NCBI GenBank assembly: GCA_017654855.1
Contig: CM030332.1
Coordinates: 2,108,001-2,172,000, forward strand
Source: Podospora anserina
Lineage: Eukaryota
DNA length: 64,000 nt
Direction: 5' to 3'
The translations under genes and the position numbers were made by a program. The notes under the pieces are model-generated. The model was not told the DNA's origin and made no database searches. It saw only the letters and a list, made by a program, of their open reading frames with translations. Each line of letters opens with the position of its first letter. Position 1 is the first letter of the stretch. Below are positions 22,309 to 52,318 of the stretch, piece by piece.

Positions 22309-25094
22309 CTTTTCTCTGAATCCGCTTACTCAGTCCTTCATCGCGTGGCGTTTTGGGTGGCGTACGGGAGACGAAAAGCACAAAGAAGGTTGATATTCTG
22401 CAAGTTGATCGCAATTCTTCTTCACGCCTCCACTTCGGTTGATCTGTTCGGCATTGCTCGGCGTTCTGGTCTCTACTGTCGTTTGCTTTGCTTTGATCGC
22501 GTTTCTGGGCATGCTTATGACACATGGGGCGCGTGAGCGGAAGGGAAATGAAATGGAAATGGCTTCTTTCGAGTCTGTTTTCTCTTTTCGTTCTGAGTTG
22601 TCTCTTTTCTGTTTTTCTTTTACTCTCTTTCTGCGAAGTCTTTCAGCGGCTATCCAGCAGTTTAGCCCAAGGTGGAAGGGGGGAAGGGCGGTATTTCTTC
22701 AGAACTCTCTTTGGAGATTTATCATCTTCATTAGGATTTCATTCTAGGGTGATATTCCCCCACCACAGCCTCTTTGTTTTTTCTTTCAACTCATGGATAT
22801 GGGAAAAAGATGGACTGGTATACTCTTTTACTGGTTTTCTTTCTTTGCTCTTTTCTGCGAGGGGAACTGGAGAGAAAAAAGTTGAGGGGGGACTTGGGTC
22901 GATTGATTTGGGGCATCTTTGTCCTTGACTGGCTGCTTATGGATTCCGTTTTATTAGCAAGAGAGACTCTGATAACTTTTTGTTTTTTCTGCAATTGACA
23001 TTCGGTCATAAGCTGCTTTTGATATTTTGCTTGCGTGTTTTGTGAGTGCTTTTGCTTGATGCTTGTGTGCACGTGCCTTTGCGTTGTGTCTTAGGATGTT
23101 TGCGTCCTTTGCGGAGGGTTGGATATCGTCTCGAGAGCATAGCGTGACGGTGTTGGGCGTCTAATGGGATGTCTTGGATTGGGGGAGCTGGAGTCTTGGA
23201 GTGATGGTGTTTTGGTTGATTGCTAGGCCAGGGGGCATTGGCGCCTGTGTTGGAACGACTTTGAAGACTTTGGATAGGGGTGAAGAGCTTTGAAGAGTTT
23301 GGCTGTGACGGGTTGCTCTTCAGCCCTTTGACCCACCGATGACCTCTCAACAAGTTTGGACGAAAGATGATGAACAATCATGGACGAAAACCTCGGTGAT
23401 GAACAGCTTTCGACGAAACCTCATGACGCCTTACGTCTCTCTTTTGGCTTATAATGAAACATGAGCAACACGGAAAAACAGAAGGAACACAACAAAACAA
23501 CAGCAGAACAAAGGTGGATTTAAGCCGGGAGCAGAGAGAGCGTACCAACAAGCAGCAACAACCCGACGTTATTCTGGAAGCAACCGTGCCAAGGAGTGGT
23601 CGACAACCTGGAATATAAGCACGTTGACGATAGGAGTCACCGGGTATCTTGGCAGCAAGTTTGAGCGTGGAGGGTTCAAGATTCGTCTGATCTCGTCGCG
23701 GCTTTTCTTGTCAGGATACCCCCCCATCAGACGACTGGCGTTGTTGGGCTTGCATACTCCCTACCTGTACCCCGTTTGCTGGTAGCATCCTGGTGGATCG
23801 TGGTGCCTGGGAGCCTTTTGGTGATGGCTTCAGCTTCGTTGGTTGATTGGCCTGTTTGGTCTCTTCATGCGGCTATGTTTGTTTTTAGCAAAGGTACTTT
23901 GGATTGCTGGGTGGCTGGATCGGCTTGGTGTTGGTGTTGGTGGTTGTCTGCTAGGGCTGTCATTGATACCACGACCGGAGTGGCTTGGTGGAATTGTGAT
24001 CAACTTGTGGAAGGATTTAGAGTAGATGCACAATAGAAAATATAGAAAGCTCTCTTGCGTGTTTTGACAGATCAGCATGGATTGGATGGTGTTGCTTGGC
24101 TCTGAGACGGGACTGGGACGGGACTGCCGGTCTGGCTGTGTGTCACTGTTGGCATTCCTGGGTTTGATGAGTAACTGGGCCTAATGGCTTTGCTTACCGG
24201 ACCTGATATAGCAACCTTCATTCACGTTGGTGACCGGTAAAGGTAACCGGATGGCAGGGGCAAGAGGGTAGTTCGGGTACACACCAGAAACACGTGGTCG
24301 GTTGTCATGAAGAATATTTGACGGCCATGCTGGGGTCCTAGCTGACTCAAAACGTTGAGGCTATGTGATGACTGACCCAGCTAGGTACCTCTTATTGCAT
24401 CGACATGGAGGGCAAGCTGACACGCCTTGGATAGACCCCAACTGGAGTCGTCCTGTGTCTGTGAAGGACGAAGTCGCTGGGTTGGAGTACATAAGGTATG
24501 GAAGAAACACCTTGTTGCTGATATGCCGCACCATACGATGATCAAGCAGTTGGATACTCGCATTTGCTTGTGTTCTTTCATGTGCTAGCATGTGGACAGG
24601 TAGCCCGGGGGCTGTATCCGTGTTATAAGCAGCCATGAACGCCATTGGCATCCATTCCTTTTCGTACCTCCGGCGGTTAGTATAAGACTTGGAAGTCCCA
24701 TACACTTGAGGTCGGCGAGATGAAACAACTCTGCGTCACTGTTAGCTTTAGACTGACTGGTTACAGGGAGTCTGGCCTGGGTGAACAGAGGCAAAATGAA
24801 AAGACGGGAAAGCAAAGAGGCAAATGAAAACGGCGTGCAACGAAGGCAGAGGCTGTAGGCAACAGGTACGACAATAATGTGATTACGTGTCGGTACATGG
24901 TGCAATCAGACAGGCTTCACGGGTGAGTTGCTACCTGGTATCTAGATAGCCTACGTGGAGAGAATTGTTGGCCTAATAAGAGCGTGGGAAAGAGAATTGG
25001 TGCATGCAATGGTCGTGCCTTTGACAATCAAGGTTGACAAGGTGTTTATAAGTGAGATTCAAGCTATCAACATACTCTAACCCCAGACTCTGCA

Positions 25095-25200
25095 TCAAAA
25101 CCAAGCCGTTTAGAGGAGAGGTAAAAGTCGTAACAAGGTCTCCATTGGGGAACCAGGAAAGGGACCATTAAAGAGTTGCAAGACTCCCCCAAAACCATCT
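25095..25200 (+). pseudogene. Dispersed, degenerate rDNA fragment: 18S rRNA 3' end plus start of ITS1
   Basis: TTTAGAGGAGAGGTAAAAGTCGTAACAAGGTCTCCATTGGGGAACCAGGAAAGGGACCATTAAAGAGTTGCAAGACTCCC closely follows the conserved fungal TTTAGAGGAAGTAAAAGTCGTAACAAGGTCTCCGTTGGTGAACCAGCGGAGGGATCATTACAGAGTTGCAAAACTCCC, with several substitutions and indels. No other rDNA flanks it. Confidence 0.85.
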
Positions 25201-28200
25201 AACATCAACCCACCGACAGCGTGTCATGGGCAGCAGAAGGTGAAAATGCCATCGTATTCTGCGACACTGCCGCCATATTGTCACCTCCGAAGGCAACTCA
25301 ACCGACGGTTGGCGACGGCGACAAACAAGTCGACGACCGGGTCATGTGGCACCAAAAGGACATCTTACTCAAGGGTGGGCCGGGCTAGGACAACCTGTTG
25401 AAGAGTGCAGTTGACGGCTGCGCGGGTGTAATGGGCGCCGAGTGTGTCACCGCGCATAGGCCGTGTTATCGTGGGCGTCCTGATGCATCGAGTTTCGGAA
25501 GATCTCATTGTCCCGCCTGAAGATATCCAAAAATTGCTGGCTTGTCTGAGATCTTCGTGGTACTGAACATGGGGCTTTGGAGCCATCGGGGCACTCGCGG
25601 AGAAAATCAGATTTCCAACGCCGCCTGGGCAGACCACGCCTGCGAGGCTCTCAGACCCGTAGGCAACCAAGACGCTAACATGTGGGAAGAATACTGGCTG
25701 CTGTCCCCAACACAAGCCCGGGGCTTGATGGCTGAATGACGCTCGGACAGGCATGGCCCGTTGATCATGGCCTGCTTCTTTTTATATTCAGGCGCATCCG
25801 GCCTGTCCTCGGGGCGCACAGGTGTGACACCACCAGGCGCAATGCCCGCCCCCCAACACCTGCCGCTGTTTTGCTTGAGCCGAAAGTGCTTTACCCCTTT
25901 GGGTCTTTTGGATTAGGCTGTACCGGTTCTCGTATTGTTGTCATGTATGCCGTTAAATTGGGAGGGGGCAAGCAAAGGATGACTGACGACATTTGCTCGA
26001 GGAGGACCTGGGAATGAACCATGCGATCAGCTGTGTACGAAGAATGATAACAGAGCACAAGTGACAAAATGACATACGGGAGCCCTCATCAAAATCGGAC
26101 CATTCACGATTCAAGCCTCCGGCAAGCGAAGGATACACACTGTCTTGCAACCAAGTCACTTCCCGTCTCCGCAACTCCATATCCCTAATGGGATATTTGC
26201 TGTGAGTGAGCCGACATCCACAGATGTCCATCAGAGGCTGTAAAGGCGACTTCCGCATATGTTGAAGTGTCATGTTCAGGAGCCATGACGACCAGTCTCG
26301 AAATATTGACAGTGACGGAACTAAGAGCCAACAGGACGACGAATATGGCGATATTGGAAGTTTCCTCGGCCCCGCAGCTCGGATCGAGATCCCTACGACA
26401 GGTGTTCACACCCACGTTACCGGAATATCTTTGCGGTGGTTCGTGAGACCGATCGGTTGGCTGGCATGGTGCGATGGTCCCAGGTTGTTTGCATGTTGAG
26501 TAGCCAATAGCACGACAATCTTGAAAGAGTCGTCAAGCGAAGCATGTGCTCAATGTTGATAACACACCGGAAGTGGCTTTTTTGACCAGGATGTCCAGCC
26601 TCAAGTCACCGAGACATGGCTCATGGGAAGCTTCTCAGTGGGCATGGCGAGCTTTGTGAGGCGCTAACTGTAAAGCATGTGCATCTCCTACACTTCTGCG
26701 GTTTCGAGAAACCCGGGACTCACTGCTCACGACTCCCATCAATCCACCTGCCCAAGGCCCTCTCAACGGCTCTTACACCACCGTTTGCGACAGCTATCAA
26801 TCAATCCACCCGCCCAGGGCCCTCCTGACTGCCCTCCCAACTGGAAGCTGTGAGCAAAGGTGGCGCTATTGATGATGTGTGGAAGAGAAGGTAGGGAATG
26901 ATGGTGGCTCAGACTGCAAGATGAAGAAGATTAAGACAGTGAGCCTGTGCCCACGCCTCAGAAGAGGCACCGTGATGCTCTGAAAAGGCTGGTGGTGCTT
27001 TGGCGGGTAGGTCTCCTGGGAGATGGGCCAAGTGGTTGGCTAAGAATGTATATGTAGTCCCTTTCGTTTGACCACGGTGCCTTTCTCCCCCATCGTATGC
27101 TTATGGGCGGACCTGGGTCGGATCGCACACCAGGAAAGGACAGATGGATAGCAACTTGTCCAGATATGGAACGCCGGAGGATGATGTCCAGAGCAAGGTC
27201 ATTTGGCCTGTAGAGTGGCTGGGCTCATAGGTTGCTAGCGGGAAGCAACGTTGGTTTTTCCCTGCTGCTTTTGCCTGTATATCAAACAGGACCAGGCCCC
27301 GGCTATCGTGTTTGAAGCCCTCACTTCGAAAGTTGCCTTCTGAGAGACGAACTGAAGAACTGACGTATGAAAAAGCGAGCCATGTCGTATTGTCCAAATC
27401 TTGGAGCCCCTGGTCGCCCCCCAACATGCCAGACTGTAAGGTTTTGTGGTGATTGGCAAGCTGGTATCTGTATGGAACTATGAAGTGCGGTTAATAAGGA
27501 GTCTGCACCACTGCATGATGGTATGAAGAAGATGGGGAGATGATGAATTCTGCAACCAACGTGAGGCCGAAAATGTCCAAGCCATATACGAAGCAATCAA
27601 ATCAAGCGATGAAGAAAGACAAGAGAAAGAAGAGAAAGAAATGCAATGACCAAAGAGAAGGCCAGTAGTAGAAAAGCAAAGGCTAGAGCCTAGAATGTGA
27701 GGAGAGATACTTACTCGAGTAGGGCCTACATTGGGACGCCATGATCTCGGTGCTCTGTTGTTTGATGAACAGGAAGGCTTGACAGGCCGTGGGTGGGAGA
27801 TGGCTGGCCCAACCTCTTAGGCAGATGCTAAATCGATAGGAAGGCGTGCTGGGGGGTGTATTGATAGTCCCCACCACTGCTCGCAATGTGTGACAGTGTG
27901 TTGTGAGTGTGGGAAAAATGATTGAACAACATCGTTCTACTTGCAGTCTTCTCAGAGACCACGATGATGTCTGTCGTGCTTGTGTGATGGTCTCAGCCAA
28001 CCGAGGTAGCTCGAAGGCACCCTATCAAAAACTGGTTATGATGGGATGAAGGCTATGAAGACCATGAGTCGGGGGACACAGTATCTGCTGCATACTGGCT
28101 GAACGCCTTCAAGTCGGAGTAGATGCCTGACCTTTGTGATGTCTTCTCCGTCGTTTACCCCGTATCTCAGGGAACGGCTCCTTGTCGGTCGAAGACCCGA

Positions 28201-28604
28201 AGTGTGATTATGGTAGTCCAGTAACTGAAGTTCTTGTAACCTGCGAAAACTTGTCCCACCGTTGAGCCTTTCCCACAGTCTAAGTCCACGGAGCTTGACA
28301 CGGTTGACAACGCTGGTTGAAGTTGGACCCTCATTGTCAACAAGAGTGGCGCGGAATGTAAAGACACGGACAACTTATTCGACGCAGGTACTTTGAGTGG
28401 CCAGCGCATCCTTCTTACTCGAATCTTCCTGATGAGACATCGTCTCTCGAGGGGGCTTTGATGTAATATATCAGGATCTGGAGTGAGAATAGAACGTTAG
28501 AAGGCGTGGTCGGCGATGGAGATAAGGGGGAAGACCAACCTTCTTGGTGGGTCGTCGAGCCTTCTTAGGTAACCTTGAGTCCCGCAAAACTCACCAGTGT
28601 AAAT

Positions 28605-29061
28605 CCTCCTCTTTAGTTATTACCCCTTCCTGGGCCTTTTTGAGTCGGTTGGCGTCCATGAAGAAAACACATCCTCCTCTTGAGGTATTACCCCTTCTTG
28701 GGCCTTCTTGAATCGGGTTGAGTCCATGAACATAGAGACCCTCCTCTTGAAATATTACCCCTTCCTGGGCCTCCTTGGATCGGTAATACGGTCGTGGCCC
28801 ATGAATGCACACCCTCCTCTTGAGTTGTTACCCCGTCATGGGCCTCCTTGGATTGGTAGCTCGGTTCGAGTCCATGAAAGATCATCCATCTTTTGAAGTA
28901 TTACCCCTTCTTGGGCCTCCTTGAATCGGTCGAATGCTCGTGGCCCATGTTACATGTCCTCCTCTTGAGTTATCACCCCTTCCTGGGCCTCCTTGAATCG
29001 GTTTGTATGTCCGAGCAAGCACCCTCCTCTTGAGTTATTACCCCTTCCTGGGCCTCCTTGA
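28605..29061. repeat. Seven-unit tandem array: conserved core CCTCCTCTTGAGTTATTACCCCTTCCTGGGCCTCCTTGAATCGG separated by variable 21-29-nt linkers
   Basis: Core starts at 28605, 28673, 28740, 28813, 28886, 28958 and 29023 (periods 68, 67, 73, 73, 72, 65 nt). Confidence 0.92.
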
Positions 29062-31648
29062 TTCCCATGAGGTCTTCGGGGATCTCATGGTCGACTTGGC
29101 CTGGATCGGGCCTCAGAGACAGGCAAATGGAGGGATGTCTTGGAGGTAATGCTACAGGTGGCATGTCAGTGGATGTACTTGTGTGGGTGACTTTCAGCAT
29201 CTGATGGGCGAGGAGACTGACGATCAGGGAGTGGGTTGCAACGCCAACAACCTGGGCTTGATCATTGACAGGATGATGAAAATAGGCAGAACACTCAACG
29301 CAAGATGAGCCAAAGATTGGAAGAAGACGAAGAAGAACACGAACATTTGTGGCCACAGAAAAGTGATTTACCAAAAAAGTCAGAATATCTCGGCAGAAGT
29401 GGCTCAACAAACAAAGTTTCGACAGGTGTTAGAGTCAAAACACAAGAAAGATCCGCAGTCCTGCGGTAGGACAACCTCGCAGCCTCCAACTCCCCCCTCG
29501 TCTCGGCATCTCCAAGCTTTCCTCACTGAATCTTGCTCGGCTCCGCCCTCCCAGAGTGACCAGAAGCGGGTACAAGTGACAAGATCGAGCATAGTTCAAT
29601 GGAAGGCGGGTACGTTCTGTTCAGCATTACACACGCTCCTTCCCCATCCATCCCCTCGCTGCCTTGGACACCGTTCCCTCACAACGTATTAACTCACTCT
29701 GCCTAGCTCTGGACCCCTGAGGGACTCCACTCTAAGAAGCTGAAGGTCTAAAAGGCGGGTACGTTGCGTCCCTTGATGACCAACCTATCCGCTTTCCTCT
29801 TTCAGTTTCAAAATCCCCGCCTGGCCTTCACTTATTCGATGCAGGGGTAAGTTGTTGGGAGAGCCAGGCGGTCAAAGCTTAAGTAAGGGAGCGGAATGGT
29901 CCGGAGACAGGCGCATACCTCCTTGTGCAGTTGAAATTTATGCCGAGAGAAAGAGGGCAGCGAAGAAGGAACAGTCATGCCCGTCAAGGACTTGGTGGGC
30001 ATCTGGCATGTGAACCTGCATATATCACAATATCCAAGGCAAGAAATGGCAAGCAACATGTCACAAGTTGATTTTGAAAGAAAGCTGCAGACAAGGGCTG
30101 CTTTTTTCTTTGATTTTCTGGCTCGAGTGACGGTTCCAATGGTCAAACTGGCCCGGGGGCAGGATGGAGCTGGACGGGACGAATAGATTAATGTCCGAAT
30201 TTAGTCATCACGGGAATTCTGTGATGTGTAATGTAACAAAATATGAGGAGCCTCTGTCAAAGTGCTTTTTTTTTTTTTTGGAAATCAGTGTTTGGAGGAC
30301 GCTCAAGTGCTCTTTGTTGTGAAGCGGGAACCCACGGAGCTCACCACCTTGCAGATTGAATTCATGAAGCAGCCCTAGGCCCACCTCATGCGAGAGTGCT
30401 TCAGGTCATGACGGTCGGTAGCCGTTTGTTCGGTTACTTGCGTTCTAAGGAGTCTATTTCTCTAAGGTCACGTTCGTTGCCAAACCGAGGTAATGTGTTG
30501 TGATTCCTTTCATATCGTGTAAAAGAGTTCGGTCAGCTGGAAAGTCCTTCACCACTTTCTCATACATGCAACCACACCCACAGCTAGACATGTCTCATTA
30601 ACACTCCTAGCACTTATAATGTAAATGGGTTTTAAGAACAGATGACATCTGCAATGTGGTTTTGTACATAGGTATCAAATGAGAAGTTGATGAAGAGCAG
30701 TTAATTCATGATTCAATAGGGTTAGGGTTAGACATGGGAAAGACCAGTGCACAGGAAATCGTCAAACTTTTGAAGCATATCTTCTTCCAAATCCGTAGTA
30801 TGGATTTTTGTCTTGTTAATGTTTGTACGAACAGGCCATCAGGACATCGATCCATTCATCGGTTTTTATCTTGGCATCTGAAGTACCAAGACCTGATCGT
30901 GATGAACTTCGATGACGTCGGATGCAACATCAAGCCAGAAAAAATGGTTCCATGGTTGAGCCACTATTATTCCCGGGTGGCATATTCGATTTGGGATGCC
31001 GATGAAGAATCCTATATCTCGCACTCTCTGGGTATCATTATTCCGAGACCGATATTGTTGTCACGCACACATCAACGTGTTGTTATCCCCGGAATTCTGA
31101 ACGGTAGCTGCTGGAGCATGCCGTCACGGGTGTCTCATTTGATTCTTGAACTCCATCCACATCTCTGAGATAAGAAAAAAGCTTGTCATCTAAGGTATGG
31201 AATATCAGGCCTCCATCGGTCTTCTATCACTGAAATATTATTCCGAGCCAACAAGCATCATGCGCTGGCTATGTGTCATACTCCAATCCGGGGCCTGGCG
31301 GGTTTCAAGGCCGAATCCTTTGATGCCAAGCCACTTATGGAAGCCTGGCGCCAACAGATCAGGTGAGGTCATTGGTGACCAGTGACAAGTTGGTGCTGTG
31401 CCCCATATCCCCTCGCCAAAGCACCACACTGCCCATCAGGAACCCGATGTACTGAAATCCGCCTTTGCCGGACCTATCCCATGACATAGCATCTCCCAGA
31501 CTCCAAGCCAGCGAAAAACAAAACCTCTCCCCTTTCCTTTCTTCAATGCCAGTTGCTGGCATCTGTTTCTGCCAATTACTCAAGTCTATTTTGCTGGCCC
31601 CGCTTTCTTCAAACATTTCGTCAGATATATCTAGGCAGGTTTGGTGGT

Positions 31649-32458: not shown

Positions 32459-34084
32459 TTTGAGATTCCTCATATTCACATGAATCAAATGGCATTGGTC
32501 TGGCGTATGATATTCAGGCATGACCAAACTGTGTACGTAGGCTGTCAACGGACACCACAGGCGAGGCGGACTGCAACCAAGGGAGCGGATACCACACATG
32601 TCCCCTCCAGGGCCAAAGCAGCTGGAAGGGGGAAGGAGGGTACGAGGGAGGACCTTCTTGAGCACCTCGTCCTTGGGGAGTTCGCGGCGTAGGTCGGCAA
32701 GTGGTGGAAGTACCTTGGTACCAGACCTGAGCCTTGTCTTAGGGTAATGAAGGTCCTCGCAGGCAACAGCCCCTGCACTGTTTTGTGGACTGGGACGCAT
32801 TCGAAATTCTTCCACCTTTCAGTCTTCTGCCTCGATTTCGCCTCTCACCACCCACCTCCTCATCATCCACATTCCACTTGGCAGCGATTCCACCATGTCA
32901 TTCCGTCACCCCATCACTCCATCATTCCAGCTAAAGTTCATTGGTGTCTCGCCTTTGGCTTGAGTCTGTAGGTTGCCCTGTACTTAAATCCCTGGCTTGT
33001 TTGTCGCTAACGATTCAGGTGGTGGTTCAAGTGGTGGTTAAAGCATGGGCTGCGTCGACAACGGGGACACATGTACCAGCTTGATTTTGTCCCCAGCCCA
33101 GCCCGATTTCATCCCCAGAGCTCACACTGAGTTCGCATTGCCAAGGTACGATCGAATCCTCAGCTTCCACTCTATTGTCCCACTTGTCTAACTGATCTTC
33201 AGACAGGGTTGACCTCCGGAGGGGATGGTCCCAGTGGCAGCAACGGACCCCGAGCCTGAGTCCACATCAGTCTTGCTCAATGTTATGAGTCCACATCGGT
33301 CTTCACTCCAGTGTCATGACCTTTCTGTCTATCGAGAGGCGTCCACACCCAAGCTCAGGGTCAACAAGCAGCCCTGATGACGAGGTTGACAACAGGGAGT
33401 TTGCTGGGTAATTGGCCAGCATCAAGCAGGGCACCAACCTGAATGCCACCGAGAAGGCCGACGAGAAGAGACAAAAATCGGTGAAGCAGTCTCGTACTCA
33501 GGTTATCGACGAGAAGCCCAAGGAGCCCAAGGGCAGAAGATTGTCATGGTGGTGTATCATAATTCATGTACATAGCATCTTTTGTATCTATACAGGGAAA
33601 GCAAGAAAAAAAAACATCTTTGGAATTCGTCGTTGTCATGCTGTGACACCTTCATGACGCTGTTAGCTTGTAAAGCCGCCATCAAACCGGTGGATGACTA
33701 ACCTGTGCTGAGCGCGGGGTCAAGGCTATCCCCTCCAGGCCGGTTTGGTCATCAAACCAACCTTCATTACTCAGCGAGGGGTCAAAGTTGTCCCCTTCAG
33801 TGAGGACAACACTGCGATTGTGTCTCCAACATCCAAGACTAGAACATGGGAAGGGAAATACTTTAAGTCCCATATCCCCTTTCCATTGTTTCCAAACCGC
33901 ACGTATAAGTAGGTACAATAAAGCCGCTCGACAGTGTGCGTCTTTCCTCCTCCTCATTCTATCTCTACCCTACGCTTGAATCACTCTGGGCTACTCAATT
34001 TACGTTTGTTTTCGTCTTGCCGACACCACACCGGCATTCGCAAAATAAAAATCCACATATACAGATCCAGCGCCACACAACAAG

Positions 34085-49234: not shown

Positions 49235-52200
49235 TCACATCACACCACCAGTACGCCCAGCATCATCAGCACCACCACCACTACTAGACCCTCTCCTCCT
49301 GATCCTCGCGATAATCGCCGGCCTCCTCACCCGCGGACGACCAACAACCGCATCAGCCATCGCAGCAACAACACCAGACTGCGCACCACCAGCAACACCA
49401 CCACGAGGAGGCGGAGACCGACCAACACCACCACCACCACCCCTCCTCTCATCAATAACAACCACCGCCCCCTCCCTCTCCCACCGCCTCCGCACCCCCC
49501 CAGGCGCAGCCCACCGAGCCTGCACCGATGGCCCCAGCGGCGGTTCCTTTCCCCCATCCTTGAACCAATCCACCGGTTGTTTGTTCTTCGTAGACTTCTT
49601 CTCCGGAGTCCCCAGCCTCATCTTACTCATTACCTTCCTCAACCCATCCAAACTGTCCTGGTCGGGGGTGTATAATGCTTGCTGAGGTGGAACTACAAGC
49701 TCGTACCTCTGTCTCTGTCTGGGACCAACCGGTGTGAGGACCCGCCGGGTAGTTCTCCTTCCTGCTGGCTGCAACGGGGCAGGGGTGGAGGGGGGGACAG
49801 GGGTGAGGTGGAGGCCTGCTACTTTTGGGGTGAGGACTTTGATGATATAGTCGTCGGTAGGGCCTGGGCGGGAAGGGGTGGATGGGGGAGGGGCAGGGGG
49901 GGCGATGACTGCTCCTGGGGGGAGGATGTTGCTTTGGAAGTGGAAGACTGGGGGGGGAGGGGGGGCGTCGTCGTCGGTTGCTGCTGCTGCTGCGGCGACG
50001 GCGGCGATGTAGGAGGGGGGTGGTTGCTGGGGGGCTGGGGAGGGGAGGTTTGGGTTTGTTGAGGGGAGGGGGGCCGCGGGGATGTGGGCTTGCGGGGTGC
50101 GGGAGGATTCGCCTTGGGTTTCGGGTTTGCGGCGGAGGAGTTTGGCTCGTGGTTGGGTTGGGTCTATGGGGTTGTGGCGGCGGACGAGTCTGGTTGTTTG
50201 GCGCCCGGGGCGGCGGGTGGGTGTGCTGGCAAAGGGTTGTTGGGGTTGTTGGGGTGCTTGGGGGGTTGTCAGGTCGGGAGCAAGCGGAAGTGGCGGAGGT
50301 GGCGGAGGAGCAGGAGGAGCAGGAGGAGCAGTAGGTGTTGGTGGTGGTGGTGGTGGTGGAGGAGGAGGCTGTTGCGGTTGCTGAGCCGACTCGGCTGCTG
50401 GTTCAGGTTCTGGAGGTACTGGAACCGGTGCCGGGTTTGCAACCGGGACAATGGGGACAACGGGCGCTTCGCCAGCTGGCTCGTTAAAGAACTGCTCGCA
50501 CCACTTACGCACATCGGCGTTCCTCTGCCATTCCCATTCCGACTTCACCTCACGATCAATCGCTTGTTTTAACTCGTGAAATGCTGGTCGTTGTTCAGGC
50601 TCTTCTAGCATGCAGGCGACAACGAGGTCGAGCAGCACACGGTCATAGATCCCGTCCCATATTTTGCCTTGGAGATAACCACCATAGCCCCAGAGCTTCC
50701 TCATTTTGGGTTGACCGGTTTTGGGGTCCAAAACAGGGTTGCCAGTATCCGGATCGGTGACCTCCTTCTCAAAGCACTCATATGGTACTGGAGAAAAGGG
50801 CAGTTTGCGAAGTGTTATCAGCCCCCACATAACCAGACCAACATGATAGAGGTTGGTTTTGTACGAGTATTTGCCGGCAATACTAGACTTCTTTTCCGGG
50901 TCTGTTTCTTCAGCGGGTAGGAATCCCGTGATGTAGTCCCACTCCTCGGTAAACTGCTCTGGTAACAGCCATCCCAACCAATATTTACCTCTTGGCCGGG
51001 ATATGTGCATCAGCTTGGGATCGTTCCGCATTGCATTCCTCATGAAAGTTGTCATTCCAAAGTCTGCGAGCTTTATGATGGGCACCATCGTGTGAGTGAT
51101 ATCCGAGTCATTGTCCGCAAAGTCGCCAACAAACAGATTTGTCGCATCGAGGTCGAAATGAACCAAGTCTGGGCTCATTTCGTACTCGCTGGGGGGGAGG
51201 ATTTCGTTGATGGGATACTTTCCCAGGTGGCGATGAGTGCTATTATATAGCTCCTCTTGGAACCGTGGGGGGTAGGCCAGAGCGAGAGCGGCCTTCAACA
51301 AGCAGTCGAATATCAGCCATAGTACCTTTTCTGGTAACGCTTGTCCGAGCAGGCTCATCCGGCCAATCCAGCTTTCGAGACCGCCCCTCCGCATCATTTC
51401 CAGGATGAGAGTCGGACCATTGTCGTCCACTTTCCCAATGTTGCTCCTCTCGACCGTCCTGTCCTGAGGATAGTTCCAGTGATGAAAGGCCTGTACAGGA
51501 TAGCCTTTAGCCCCCGTGCCATCGTCTGTATCGGTGCTGCCATCCGGATCATCGTCCGGGGGCGGCGCCGGTGGTGGGGCAGGTGTCGGTGTGATGGTCC
51601 TTCTCGATGGTCCAGCTTTCGACACGAGTCCTCCAGCCTTTGATACGAGTCCTCCTCCGGCCTTTGACACAAGTCCTCCAGCCACGACCCGCGGATCAAC
51701 ACCTGGTAATGGTGCCGTGTTTTTCTTTCTTTCCGGAGGGCGCAAGTAAACCCTTTGTGTGATATGTCGTGCCCGTGCCAGATATCGGTGCATCTGCTTC
51801 TCATTTTCCAGCTCATTGCCCGATATAGCATTCAACGCGTACTTGAAGACCACGTCTCTGGTCCGGCCCTTCAAGTCCTGGATCGTGTACATGGCAGCGA
51901 GCCCGTTCCCACCAAACCCAAGGAACTTTCTGAAGCCAATTTGCGCCTGCGGCGAGACGATGTACAAGGGAATGTTTTCGAGTTCCTTCTGGATCTCCTC
52001 GGGTAAATTGGACACACCTTTGTCTCCCAGGTCAAACTTGGGAAGACTCTGAATGTTTATCATTGAGTTTTTCTGCTTGTCATTTTCGTGGCCGGGAGCC
52101 TTGCCCGGCAGGGGAAGGTCGTAGTTTCTCCATAGCTCAGGTTGATCGCACTCCTCTTCCCACAGCCTTTGTTTTCCAAGGCGGTAGTAGACGAGGGAGG

Positions 52201-52318
52201 TTGCATTGCGCTGACGATAGAGGTGGAGCTTTCTCATATAATCGGGGTCGCGGTCCCTATATCTACGGTCGATGAGGTACCCGGGCTGACCGGCTTCTTT
52301 GCTGACTGCTGGCGGCAT
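49235..52318 (-). CDS. Protein kinase-like protein with long Pro/Gln-rich C-terminal region (about 1030 aa, single ORF)
   Basis: Gly loop FLGFGGNGLA, VVFK lysine, ELENEK helix C, catalytic loop VHFDLDATNLFV, KLADFG, LPEQF, EEPEQRP. First ATG at 52318; the ORF track begins at TTG 52327. Confidence 0.85.
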   Translation of the reverse strand: MPPAVSKEAGQPGYLIDRRYRDRDPDYMRKLHLYRQRNATSLVYYRLGKQRLWEEECDQPELWRNYDLPLPGKAPGHENDKQKNSMINIQSLPKFDLGDKGVSNLPEEIQKELENIPLYIVSPQAQIGFRKFLGFGGNGLAAMYTIQDLKGRTRDVVFKYALNAISGNELENEKQMHRYLARARHITQRVYLRPPERKKNTAPLPGVDPRVVAGGLVSKAGGGLVSKAGGLVSKAGPSRRTITPTPAPPPAPPPDDDPDGSTDTDDGTGAKGYPVQAFHHWNYPQDRTVERSNIGKVDDNGPTLILEMMRRGGLESWIGRMSLLGQALPEKVLWLIFDCLLKAALALAYPPRFQEELYNSTHRHLGKYPINEILPPSEYEMSPDLVHFDLDATNLFVGDFADNDSDITHTMVPIIKLADFGMTTFMRNAMRNDPKLMHISRPRGKYWLGWLLPEQFTEEWDYITGFLPAEETDPEKKSSIAGKYSYKTNLYHVGLVMWGLITLRKLPFSPVPYECFEKEVTDPDTGNPVLDPKTGQPKMRKLWGYGGYLQGKIWDGIYDRVLLDLVVACMLEEPEQRPAFHELKQAIDREVKSEWEWQRNADVRKWCEQFFNEPAGEAPVVPIVPVANPAPVPVPPEPEPAAESAQQPQQPPPPPPPPPPTPTAPPAPPAPPPPPPLPLAPDLTTPQAPQQPQQPFASTPTRRPGRQTTRLVRRHNPIDPTQPRAKLLRRKPETQGESSRTPQAHIPAAPLPSTNPNLPSPAPQQPPPSYIAAVAAAAAATDDDAPPPPPVFHFQSNILPPGAVIAPPAPPPSTPSRPGPTDDYIIKVLTPKVAGLHLTPVPPSTPAPLQPAGRRTTRRVLTPVGPRQRQRYELVVPPQQALYTPDQDSLDGLRKVMSKMRLGTPEKKSTKNKQPVDWFKDGGKEPPLGPSVQARWAAPGGVRRRWEREGAVVVIDERRGGGGGVGRSPPPRGGVAGGAQSGVVAAMADAVVGRPRVRRPAIIARIRRRGSSSGGGADDAGRTGGVM

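Follow-up and report, generated by a model that had tools for sequence, protein, structure and literature searches.

The array reported here can be compared with several described systems. The closest systems are minisatellites; for satellites in general, repeats are known to turn over through conversion and unequal crossing-over (PMC5615363, PMC8122249). Like these, the array is confined to a single locus, where units of 65-73 nt follow each other head to tail, and has signs of a higher-order step of two units, reshuffled variants and a decayed edge. It differs from them in that its divergence is unusually block-wise: a 44-nt core free of indels and an island of 8-9 nt stand against two saturated patches. 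In Podospora anserina itself, concerted evolution of repeats via conversion and unequal crossing-over has been documented for the HNWD WD40 repeats (PMC2873952), which, like the array, have homogenised units with few hypervariable positions. However, the HNWD repeats are in frame, coding and under diversifying selection, whereas the array is out of frame and without a coding signal.

Spliced non-coding transcripts are common in P. anserina, for which 1732 nTARs, 55.8% of them with introns (PMC9801653), and 668 non-coding EST regions (PMC2441463) are described. The transcript that hosts the array agrees with the nTARs in being intergenic and spliced and in having neither an annotated CDS nor a convincing ORF, but differs from them in that it carries a repeat array. 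A likeness in layout only exists to Xist repeat A, which belongs to a spliced lncRNA with 7.5-8.5 conserved cores, separated by variable linkers, in its 5' part (PMC5742192). Repeat A, with its 26-nt cores and U-rich linkers, is conserved across mammals and its function has been tested (PMC5742192); the Podospora array, in contrast, has no sequence likeness to it and is expressed at a very low level.

CRISPR arrays resemble the array in the lengths of repeats and spacers and in the decayed terminal repeat. They differ in that the linkers of the array are homologous to each other, that cas genes and matches to mobile elements are absent and that the host is a eukaryote. Our literature search found no paper on this locus or on any repeat-spacer array in Podospora.

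Organisation of the array

The initial annotation of the window, which is the whole 64-kb stretch of DNA analysed here, had claimed seven cores, six linkers and core-to-core periods of 68/67/73/73/72/65 nt. All of this was confirmed, the linkers being identical letter for letter (Table 1). The seven 44-nt cores differ from the majority consensus at 1-6 of 44 positions and contain no indel; their pairwise identity is 85% on average (range 77-91%), and the periods range from 65 to 73 nt. With a TRF score of 303 this is the strongest tandem array in the window. The words CCCCT and TCAAG occur in it six and ten times, respectively, and CCATG, which had been ascribed to most linkers, is present in five of the six.

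The count of seven units holds in so far as all seven are present, but a decayed eighth core (unit 0) also lies in register, 65 nt before unit 1. Without gaps it matches the consensus at 25 of 44 positions, a value reached by 16 of 1,413,894 background positions, and its local alignment to the consensus has a p of 0.002. One other stretch of the 64 kb reaches 25 matches, at 29796, and is out of register. Decayed edge copies are a signature of tandem-array turnover.

Table 1. Positions of the repeat units and of the features around them in the 64-kb window
Feature	Position	Strand	Remarks
Patchwork of copied pieces (rDNA and three further loci)	25094-26015		about 2.6 kb from the array
Orphan frame P0019 across the 237-nt intron	27101-28000	-	220 aa from TTG; 134 aa from first ATG
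237-nt GT..AG intron	27478-27714	-	one contig of one of four runs
Middle exon of low-level transcript	27715-28477	-	codon use not coding-like
62-nt GT..AG intron	28478-28539	-	closely follows the array on the transcribed strand; depth 3, short side of the joint 22 nt
Unit 0, decayed core	28540-28583		low end is a minus-strand splice donor in use
Core, unit 1	28605-28648		4 differences from consensus; within a spliced contig
Linker 1	28649-28672		24 nt, short type
Core, unit 2	28673-28716		3 differences from consensus
Linker 2	28717-28739		23 nt, short type; 11-nt word common to linker 4
Core, unit 3	28740-28783		3 differences from consensus
Linker 3	28784-28812		29 nt, with 8-nt insertion; 12-nt word common to linker 5
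Core, unit 4	28813-28856		5 differences from consensus
Linker 4	28857-28885		29 nt, with 8-nt insertion
Core, unit 5	28886-28929		6 differences from consensus
Linker 5	28930-28957		28 nt, with 8-nt insertion
Core, unit 6	28958-29001		1 difference from consensus
Linker 6	29002-29022		21 nt; CCATG island decayed
Core, unit 7	29023-29066		equals consensus apart from last five bases
Pyrimidine-rich stretch	29250-29450	-	candidate 5' end of the transcript; pyrimidine fraction 0.60-0.74

Kinship of linkers and cores

Comparing the linkers with each other shows that they are related. The words common to linkers 3 and 5 (12 nt) and to linkers 2 and 4 (11 nt) each have a p of 0.0005, and in 8 of 15 linker pairs the common word is longer than in shuffled sequences (p<0.05). 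One 8-nt insertion is common to linkers 3-5, and along the array the linkers alternate between two types. Therefore they are not acquired spacers, and the earlier statement that they are homologous is borne out. The alternation points to a two-unit duplication after the frame-breaking insertion. The cores do not track this pairing, as units 2 and 4 and units 3 and 5 are no closer to each other than other pairs, and of the ten pairs that shared core variants form, five do not fit a single tree. This incompatibility fits an exchange among cores, which may have taken place, but with so few sites recurrent mutation is equally able to produce it.

Divergence within the unit

The most variable 20 columns of the alignment hold 37 changes in 119 cells, versus 22 in 270 elsewhere. 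This contrast, with a statistic of 31, was reached by none of 300 uniform-rate star-phylogeny simulations and by one of 350 and none of 350 duplication-tree simulations, with the boundary between core and linker chosen freely in data and null alike. The contrast between core and linker is therefore stronger than expected from uniform drift. That a conserved core is set against a drifting linker, as first proposed, is nevertheless only half of the picture: the contrast is real, but the linker is not uniformly variable. The unit consists of four blocks, namely the core, a variable patch, a conserved island of 8-9 nt around CCATG and a second variable patch. Every indel of the array falls in the linkers, and linkers 3 and 5 keep a perfect 12-mer while most of the flanking positions differ.

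The cores have drifted from their consensus at 22 of 280 sites (7.9%), which is within the range of the copied fragments nearby (5-13%). If the array and the patchwork are of equal or similar age, as we assume, it is not the cores that are unusually conserved but the linker patches that are unusually variable. A binding platform maintained by selection on the core may exist but is not needed to account for the contrast; the cores drifted like nearby fragments, their variants do not fit one tree and the edge unit is decayed. The uneven conservation within the unit is still not fully explained.

In 71 background tiles of 10 kb (710 kb) no array like this was found by inspection. These tiles contain seven TRF arrays with a period of 25 or more, and a chain scan gave six loci, all without this block layout; therefore the feature is uncommon. 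Among the background tiles we noted a 40-nt tandem repeat with 4.4 copies and 97% matches at L110 9650-9823 (G000:C7, about 3.36 Mb).

Copy number, position and searches outside the genome

The array lies on contig C1 of the 35.96-Mb genome, and a DNA search of this genome finds the array alone. A gene at 59.8-60.7 kb of the window falls into one cluster with proteins called *_106010 or equivalent in five Podospora species, which puts the host into the P. anserina complex. Allowing three mismatches, all seven genome matches to a pattern of the second half of the core are inside the array. For the first half these are seven of ten, and the other three have 2-3 mismatches, compared with two matches for the control. 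Matching of CDS ends to Table S1 of PMC9801653, which gives an offset of about 2,082,095, would place the array between Pa_1_5920 and Pa_1_5927. The rows for Pa_1_59xx and Pa_1_60xx of that table contain no gene between these two (PMC9801653).

Metagenome, viral and prokaryote contigs gave no match to the array, phages and plasmids gave matches at chance level only (best E 2 and 0.5), and a lookup of seven ATG frames inside the array gave no variant from a relative. Orphan frames near the array do have such variants, with 5 differences in 108 residues and 14 in 144, and a Pa_1_6010-like gene differs at 5-12 of 312. Therefore the region exists in relatives and is comparable.

Two bacterial signals were rejected. 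A sigma-70 promoter scan gave no more than chance matches and has no relevance for a fungus. For a bacterial origin, considered on account of a ribosome-binding-site-like GAGGAGG followed after 9-13 nt by ATG on the minus strand, no source was found in the searched contigs, phages and plasmids.

Transcription and orphan frames

RNA cover was studied with contigs of four putative RNA runs (two studies), which were compared with the region 25.5-31.5 kb. Two minus-strand GT..AG joints (28540/28477 and 27715/27477) were found, each in one contig of one of the four runs and at a depth of 2-3. The contig with the first joint covers 28540-28670, so that in this contig units 0 and 1, together with 22 of the 24 nt of linker 1, form unspliced exon sequence. 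Contig cover of the array reaches units 0-1 only, at a contig depth of 2-5; none of the four runs covers 28716-29318, which speaks neither for nor against expression of units 2-7. The 62-nt intron has a branch-like word at 28500 and its acceptor at 28478. The joint of the 237-nt intron is independently confirmed by the Logan protein P0019 (four contigs), which is identical with the joined frame. One contig at 29398-29546, for which either strand is possible, overlaps the pyrimidine-rich stretch. One predicted intron, at 28095-28022, was discarded, as all three contigs crossing one end are unspliced there, and another, of 45 nt at 28418, is without contig support.

In a transcript modelled from 29400 the longest ATG frame has 134 aa, with 23 ATGs ahead of it. 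Codon scores of the exons range from -0.10 to -0.23; the mean of the desert is -0.21, and five held-out gene frames score between -0.02 and +0.17. Judged by this codon use, the minus-strand host transcript is probably non-coding. The gene desert of the initial annotation is not silent, as low-level spliced transcripts come from it.

Word-based searches (longer proteins only) at E<=10, E<=1 and E<=10 found no homologue of the downstream frames, which is weak evidence. A phmmer search of 1.84 billion proteins gave three matches, which were rejected as artefacts, being tandem-repeat ORFs with summed weak stretches. Results from Pfam, PHROGs and the Atlas were blank or low, and no relative was found in metagenome, prokaryote or viral contigs; one viral-contig match of 33 residues appeared, with an E of 2e-4 that refers to the candidates only. 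The single-sequence fold of P0019 is uninformative (pLDDT 34.6).

Some further observations were made in the same region. At 31192-31252 (+), upstream of the Pa_1_5927-like gene, one contig shows a 61-nt GT..AG joint, which belongs either to another low-level spliced transcript or to a long 5' leader. An orphan frame of 144 aa at 30734-31168 (+) is found in Logan contigs; variants in relatives are 89-99% identical and have different ends, and its codon use is non-coding-like. Just upstream of the candidate 5' end, in the stretch 29572-29765, a perfect 14-nt direct repeat occurs at 29603 and 29752, 149 nt apart; positions 29564-29572 hold a related word. Further away, at 49235-52318 (-), lies an intronless kinase-like frame of 1027 aa, which matches a Pfam kinase family weakly and ends in a long tail rich in proline; the protein collection does not contain this exact sequence.

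A patchwork of copied pieces near the array

The patchwork is made of interleaved pieces of 47-187 nt, which are 87-95% identical to their sources (5-13% diverged). Two come from rDNA, two from C3 (1801234, 1801468), one from C4:1033115 and two from a gene (C1:1428765, 1428959) which, from its translation, we take to be ubiquitin-protease-like. The rDNA pieces presumably correspond to 18S/ITS1 in forward and to the 5.8S/ITS2 region in reversed orientation. Two of the pieces overlap by 5 nt (25754-25758). The arrangement looks like the result of template switching or end-joining capture, and the patchwork may be worth a separate study. RIP was rejected: the dinucleotide (RIP) indices of the array are near those of the whole window, and the patchwork substitutions are balanced transitions.

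More copied pieces are found at 26.7-26.8 kb and 33.2-33.5 kb. The former region holds a two-copy repeat of about 62 nt (26716-26843), which is like short tandem repeats at C4:1028027 and C6:3513909; the frame just after the latter presumably resembles a fungal FunK1-type kinase. The latter region (33210-33532) contains two pieces, one of 49-58 nt from C1:1992113 and one of 163 nt that is 91% identical to its source, a coding exon at C1:4157967.

A minisatellite as the preferred explanation

We consider it rather likely that the locus is a neutral minisatellite, formed by unequal exchange and by gene conversion limited to the cores. It would belong to the 5' part of a weakly expressed, spliced and probably non-coding transcript, within an intergenic scrapyard of fragments copied from other loci. 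A diverged minisatellite, listed earlier as an alternative, is thus the best-supported reading, as the array has a single locus, homologous linkers, a decayed edge and reshuffled variants. As part of this reading, its eight units of 65-73 nt were in our judgement probably amplified locally and have no function of their own. Its homologous units follow each other head to tail at a single locus and are within the 10-100 nt of minisatellites, and it also has the marks of turnover, i.e. higher-order duplication, reshuffled variants and a decayed edge, the numbers being small (5 informative sites).

The array could have formed in four steps. A unit of about 65 nt would have been duplicated in tandem, leaving behind unit 0, whose decay is visible, as the edge. 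One copy would then have gained the 8-nt insertion and would have been amplified, by unequal exchange and partly as a two-unit block, to give the alternating linkers that are observed. Short tracts of conversion or exchange would keep the indel-free cores alike, and the length-variable linkers, which could not pair, would drift. Finally, transcription from the upstream pyrimidine-rich DNA would run through the array, as is seen for units 0-1 and presumed for the rest. We infer conversion as the cause of the contrast between core and linker. This explanation is weakest for the 12-nt island, which is intact with saturated patches on either side; such an island is short for conversion and poorly explained by it.

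Alternative explanations

The alternative that survives best, which we regard as unlikely, is a functional repeat module. This would be a platform of several sites, carried either by DNA or by a lncRNA in its 5' part, where a putative protein would recognise the CCATG island as well as the purine-rich core, with the patches that space them free to drift. The significant and sharply bounded conservation, the cores without indel, the exonic units 0-1 in spliced RNA and the recurring words CCCCT and TCAAG (6 and 10 times) are in line with it. So is a 4-bp mini-stem (8-base GCCC/GGGT on the minus, i.e. the transcribed strand) with a variable loop, which is invariant in all seven cores, with a chance of 0.02 for a feature chosen post hoc. 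However, compensatory changes were found in none of four and none of eight pairs when consensus folds were searched for covariation, the contig depth is only 2-5, the array is a single locus without a match outside the genome, the adjoining DNA is a scrapyard of copied pieces and the edge unit is decayed. In a more specific version of this idea, selection would act on a multivalent module for protein binding in a fungal lncRNA that is new to the literature. Such a module, with purine-rich cores, the invariant stem and a second island, would have arisen de novo in a region of captured fragments and be similar in layout to Xist repeat A; this we hold to be distinctly unlikely.

Folding was also of interest for another proposal of the initial annotation, a polycistronic small-RNA precursor. 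Twelve single-unit folds have z values of -1.67 to +0.95 versus shuffles, none of them below -2, and the fold of the whole array has a z of -0.02. Rfam gave no match in the array and one chance match elsewhere in 24-34 kb, and there is no tRNA in the 64-kb window. With folds no better than shuffles, no covariation and no Rfam match in the array, this proposal is not supported.

Could the array be the relic of a repeat-protein gene? In this case a repeat of 23-24 residues (the KEAQEG frame on the minus strand) with variable linker codons would have been frameshifted later. This frame is open in all seven cores and has an in-frame ATG in units 1, 2 and 7, spliced exons lie downstream, and the HNWD repeats are an example from P. 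anserina of homogenised units with few hypervariable codons (PMC2873952). However, the frame has a pN/pS of 1.04 and a codon score of -0.115, and a plus-strand frame is likewise open in all seven cores with a gene-like codon score of +0.054 and a pN/pS of 0.71 on 22 changes, values which would be too little to call selection. No coding selection was detected in any of the six frames (pN/pS 0.71-1.57 on 18-22 changes). One of the six periods is a multiple of three and the other five break the frame, which, together with the pN/pS values, upholds the initial view that the array is not an intact repeat protein. Moreover, the 8-nt insertion common to three units means that amplification continued after the frame was lost, and neither the word-based searches nor Pfam, PHROGs and the Atlas gave a homologue. 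A protein relic is therefore quite improbable.

An array of uORFs which throttles the downstream orphan frame, with selection keeping the ATG island and the stop in the core, appears very improbable. An ATG island is present in five of six linkers, units 3-5 each form a frame of 15 codons ending at a stop which is TAA or TGA in all seven cores, and an orphan frame does follow downstream. Against this, units 1, 2 and 7 have the ATG in another frame, CATG as a palindrome gives ATGs on both strands, a pyrimidine is at -3 in most cases, and the downstream frame has non-coding codon use and neither a homologue nor a fold.

It is highly improbable that the units are exons of a repeat-per-exon gene with the linkers as micro-introns. 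A conserved block next to an indel-rich block is the usual signature of exon and intron, and unit 0 ends exactly at the used donor. Nevertheless, the linkers have only 21-29 nt, no donor/acceptor pair is common to all units, no branch-site word occurs in the array, and in the spliced contig core 1 continues without a joint into linker 1, of which 22 of the 24 nt are covered (RNA cover being that of units 0-1).

Finally, a locus of the CRISPR kind with acquired spacers, or one for polycistronic small RNAs with units that are processed, is suggested by the 44-nt repeat, the linkers of 21-29 nt and the decayed terminal repeat, but is extremely improbable, and spacer acquisition is largely refuted: spacer independence, mobile-DNA targets and cas genes were not found, the linkers being homologous, a palindromic fold and an Rfam family being absent, matches to phages and plasmids being at chance (best E 2 and 0.5) with none in viral, metagenome or prokaryote contigs, and no cas-like family being detected with Pfam in 17 scanned frames, 11 of them in 25-33 kb.

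Implications

The array is real and probably ordinary, with one unexplained feature. If it is ordinary, it is a clear case of tandem-repeat turnover which mimics a repeat-spacer system. It then also marks an intergenic patch where, in fungi of the P. anserina complex, spliced orphan transcripts and fragments copied from elsewhere come together as raw material for new genes. If the cores should turn out to be conserved across species and bound by protein, the array would represent a modular element of a lncRNA, and this in a model fungus that is tractable and in which deletion and tagging are routine.
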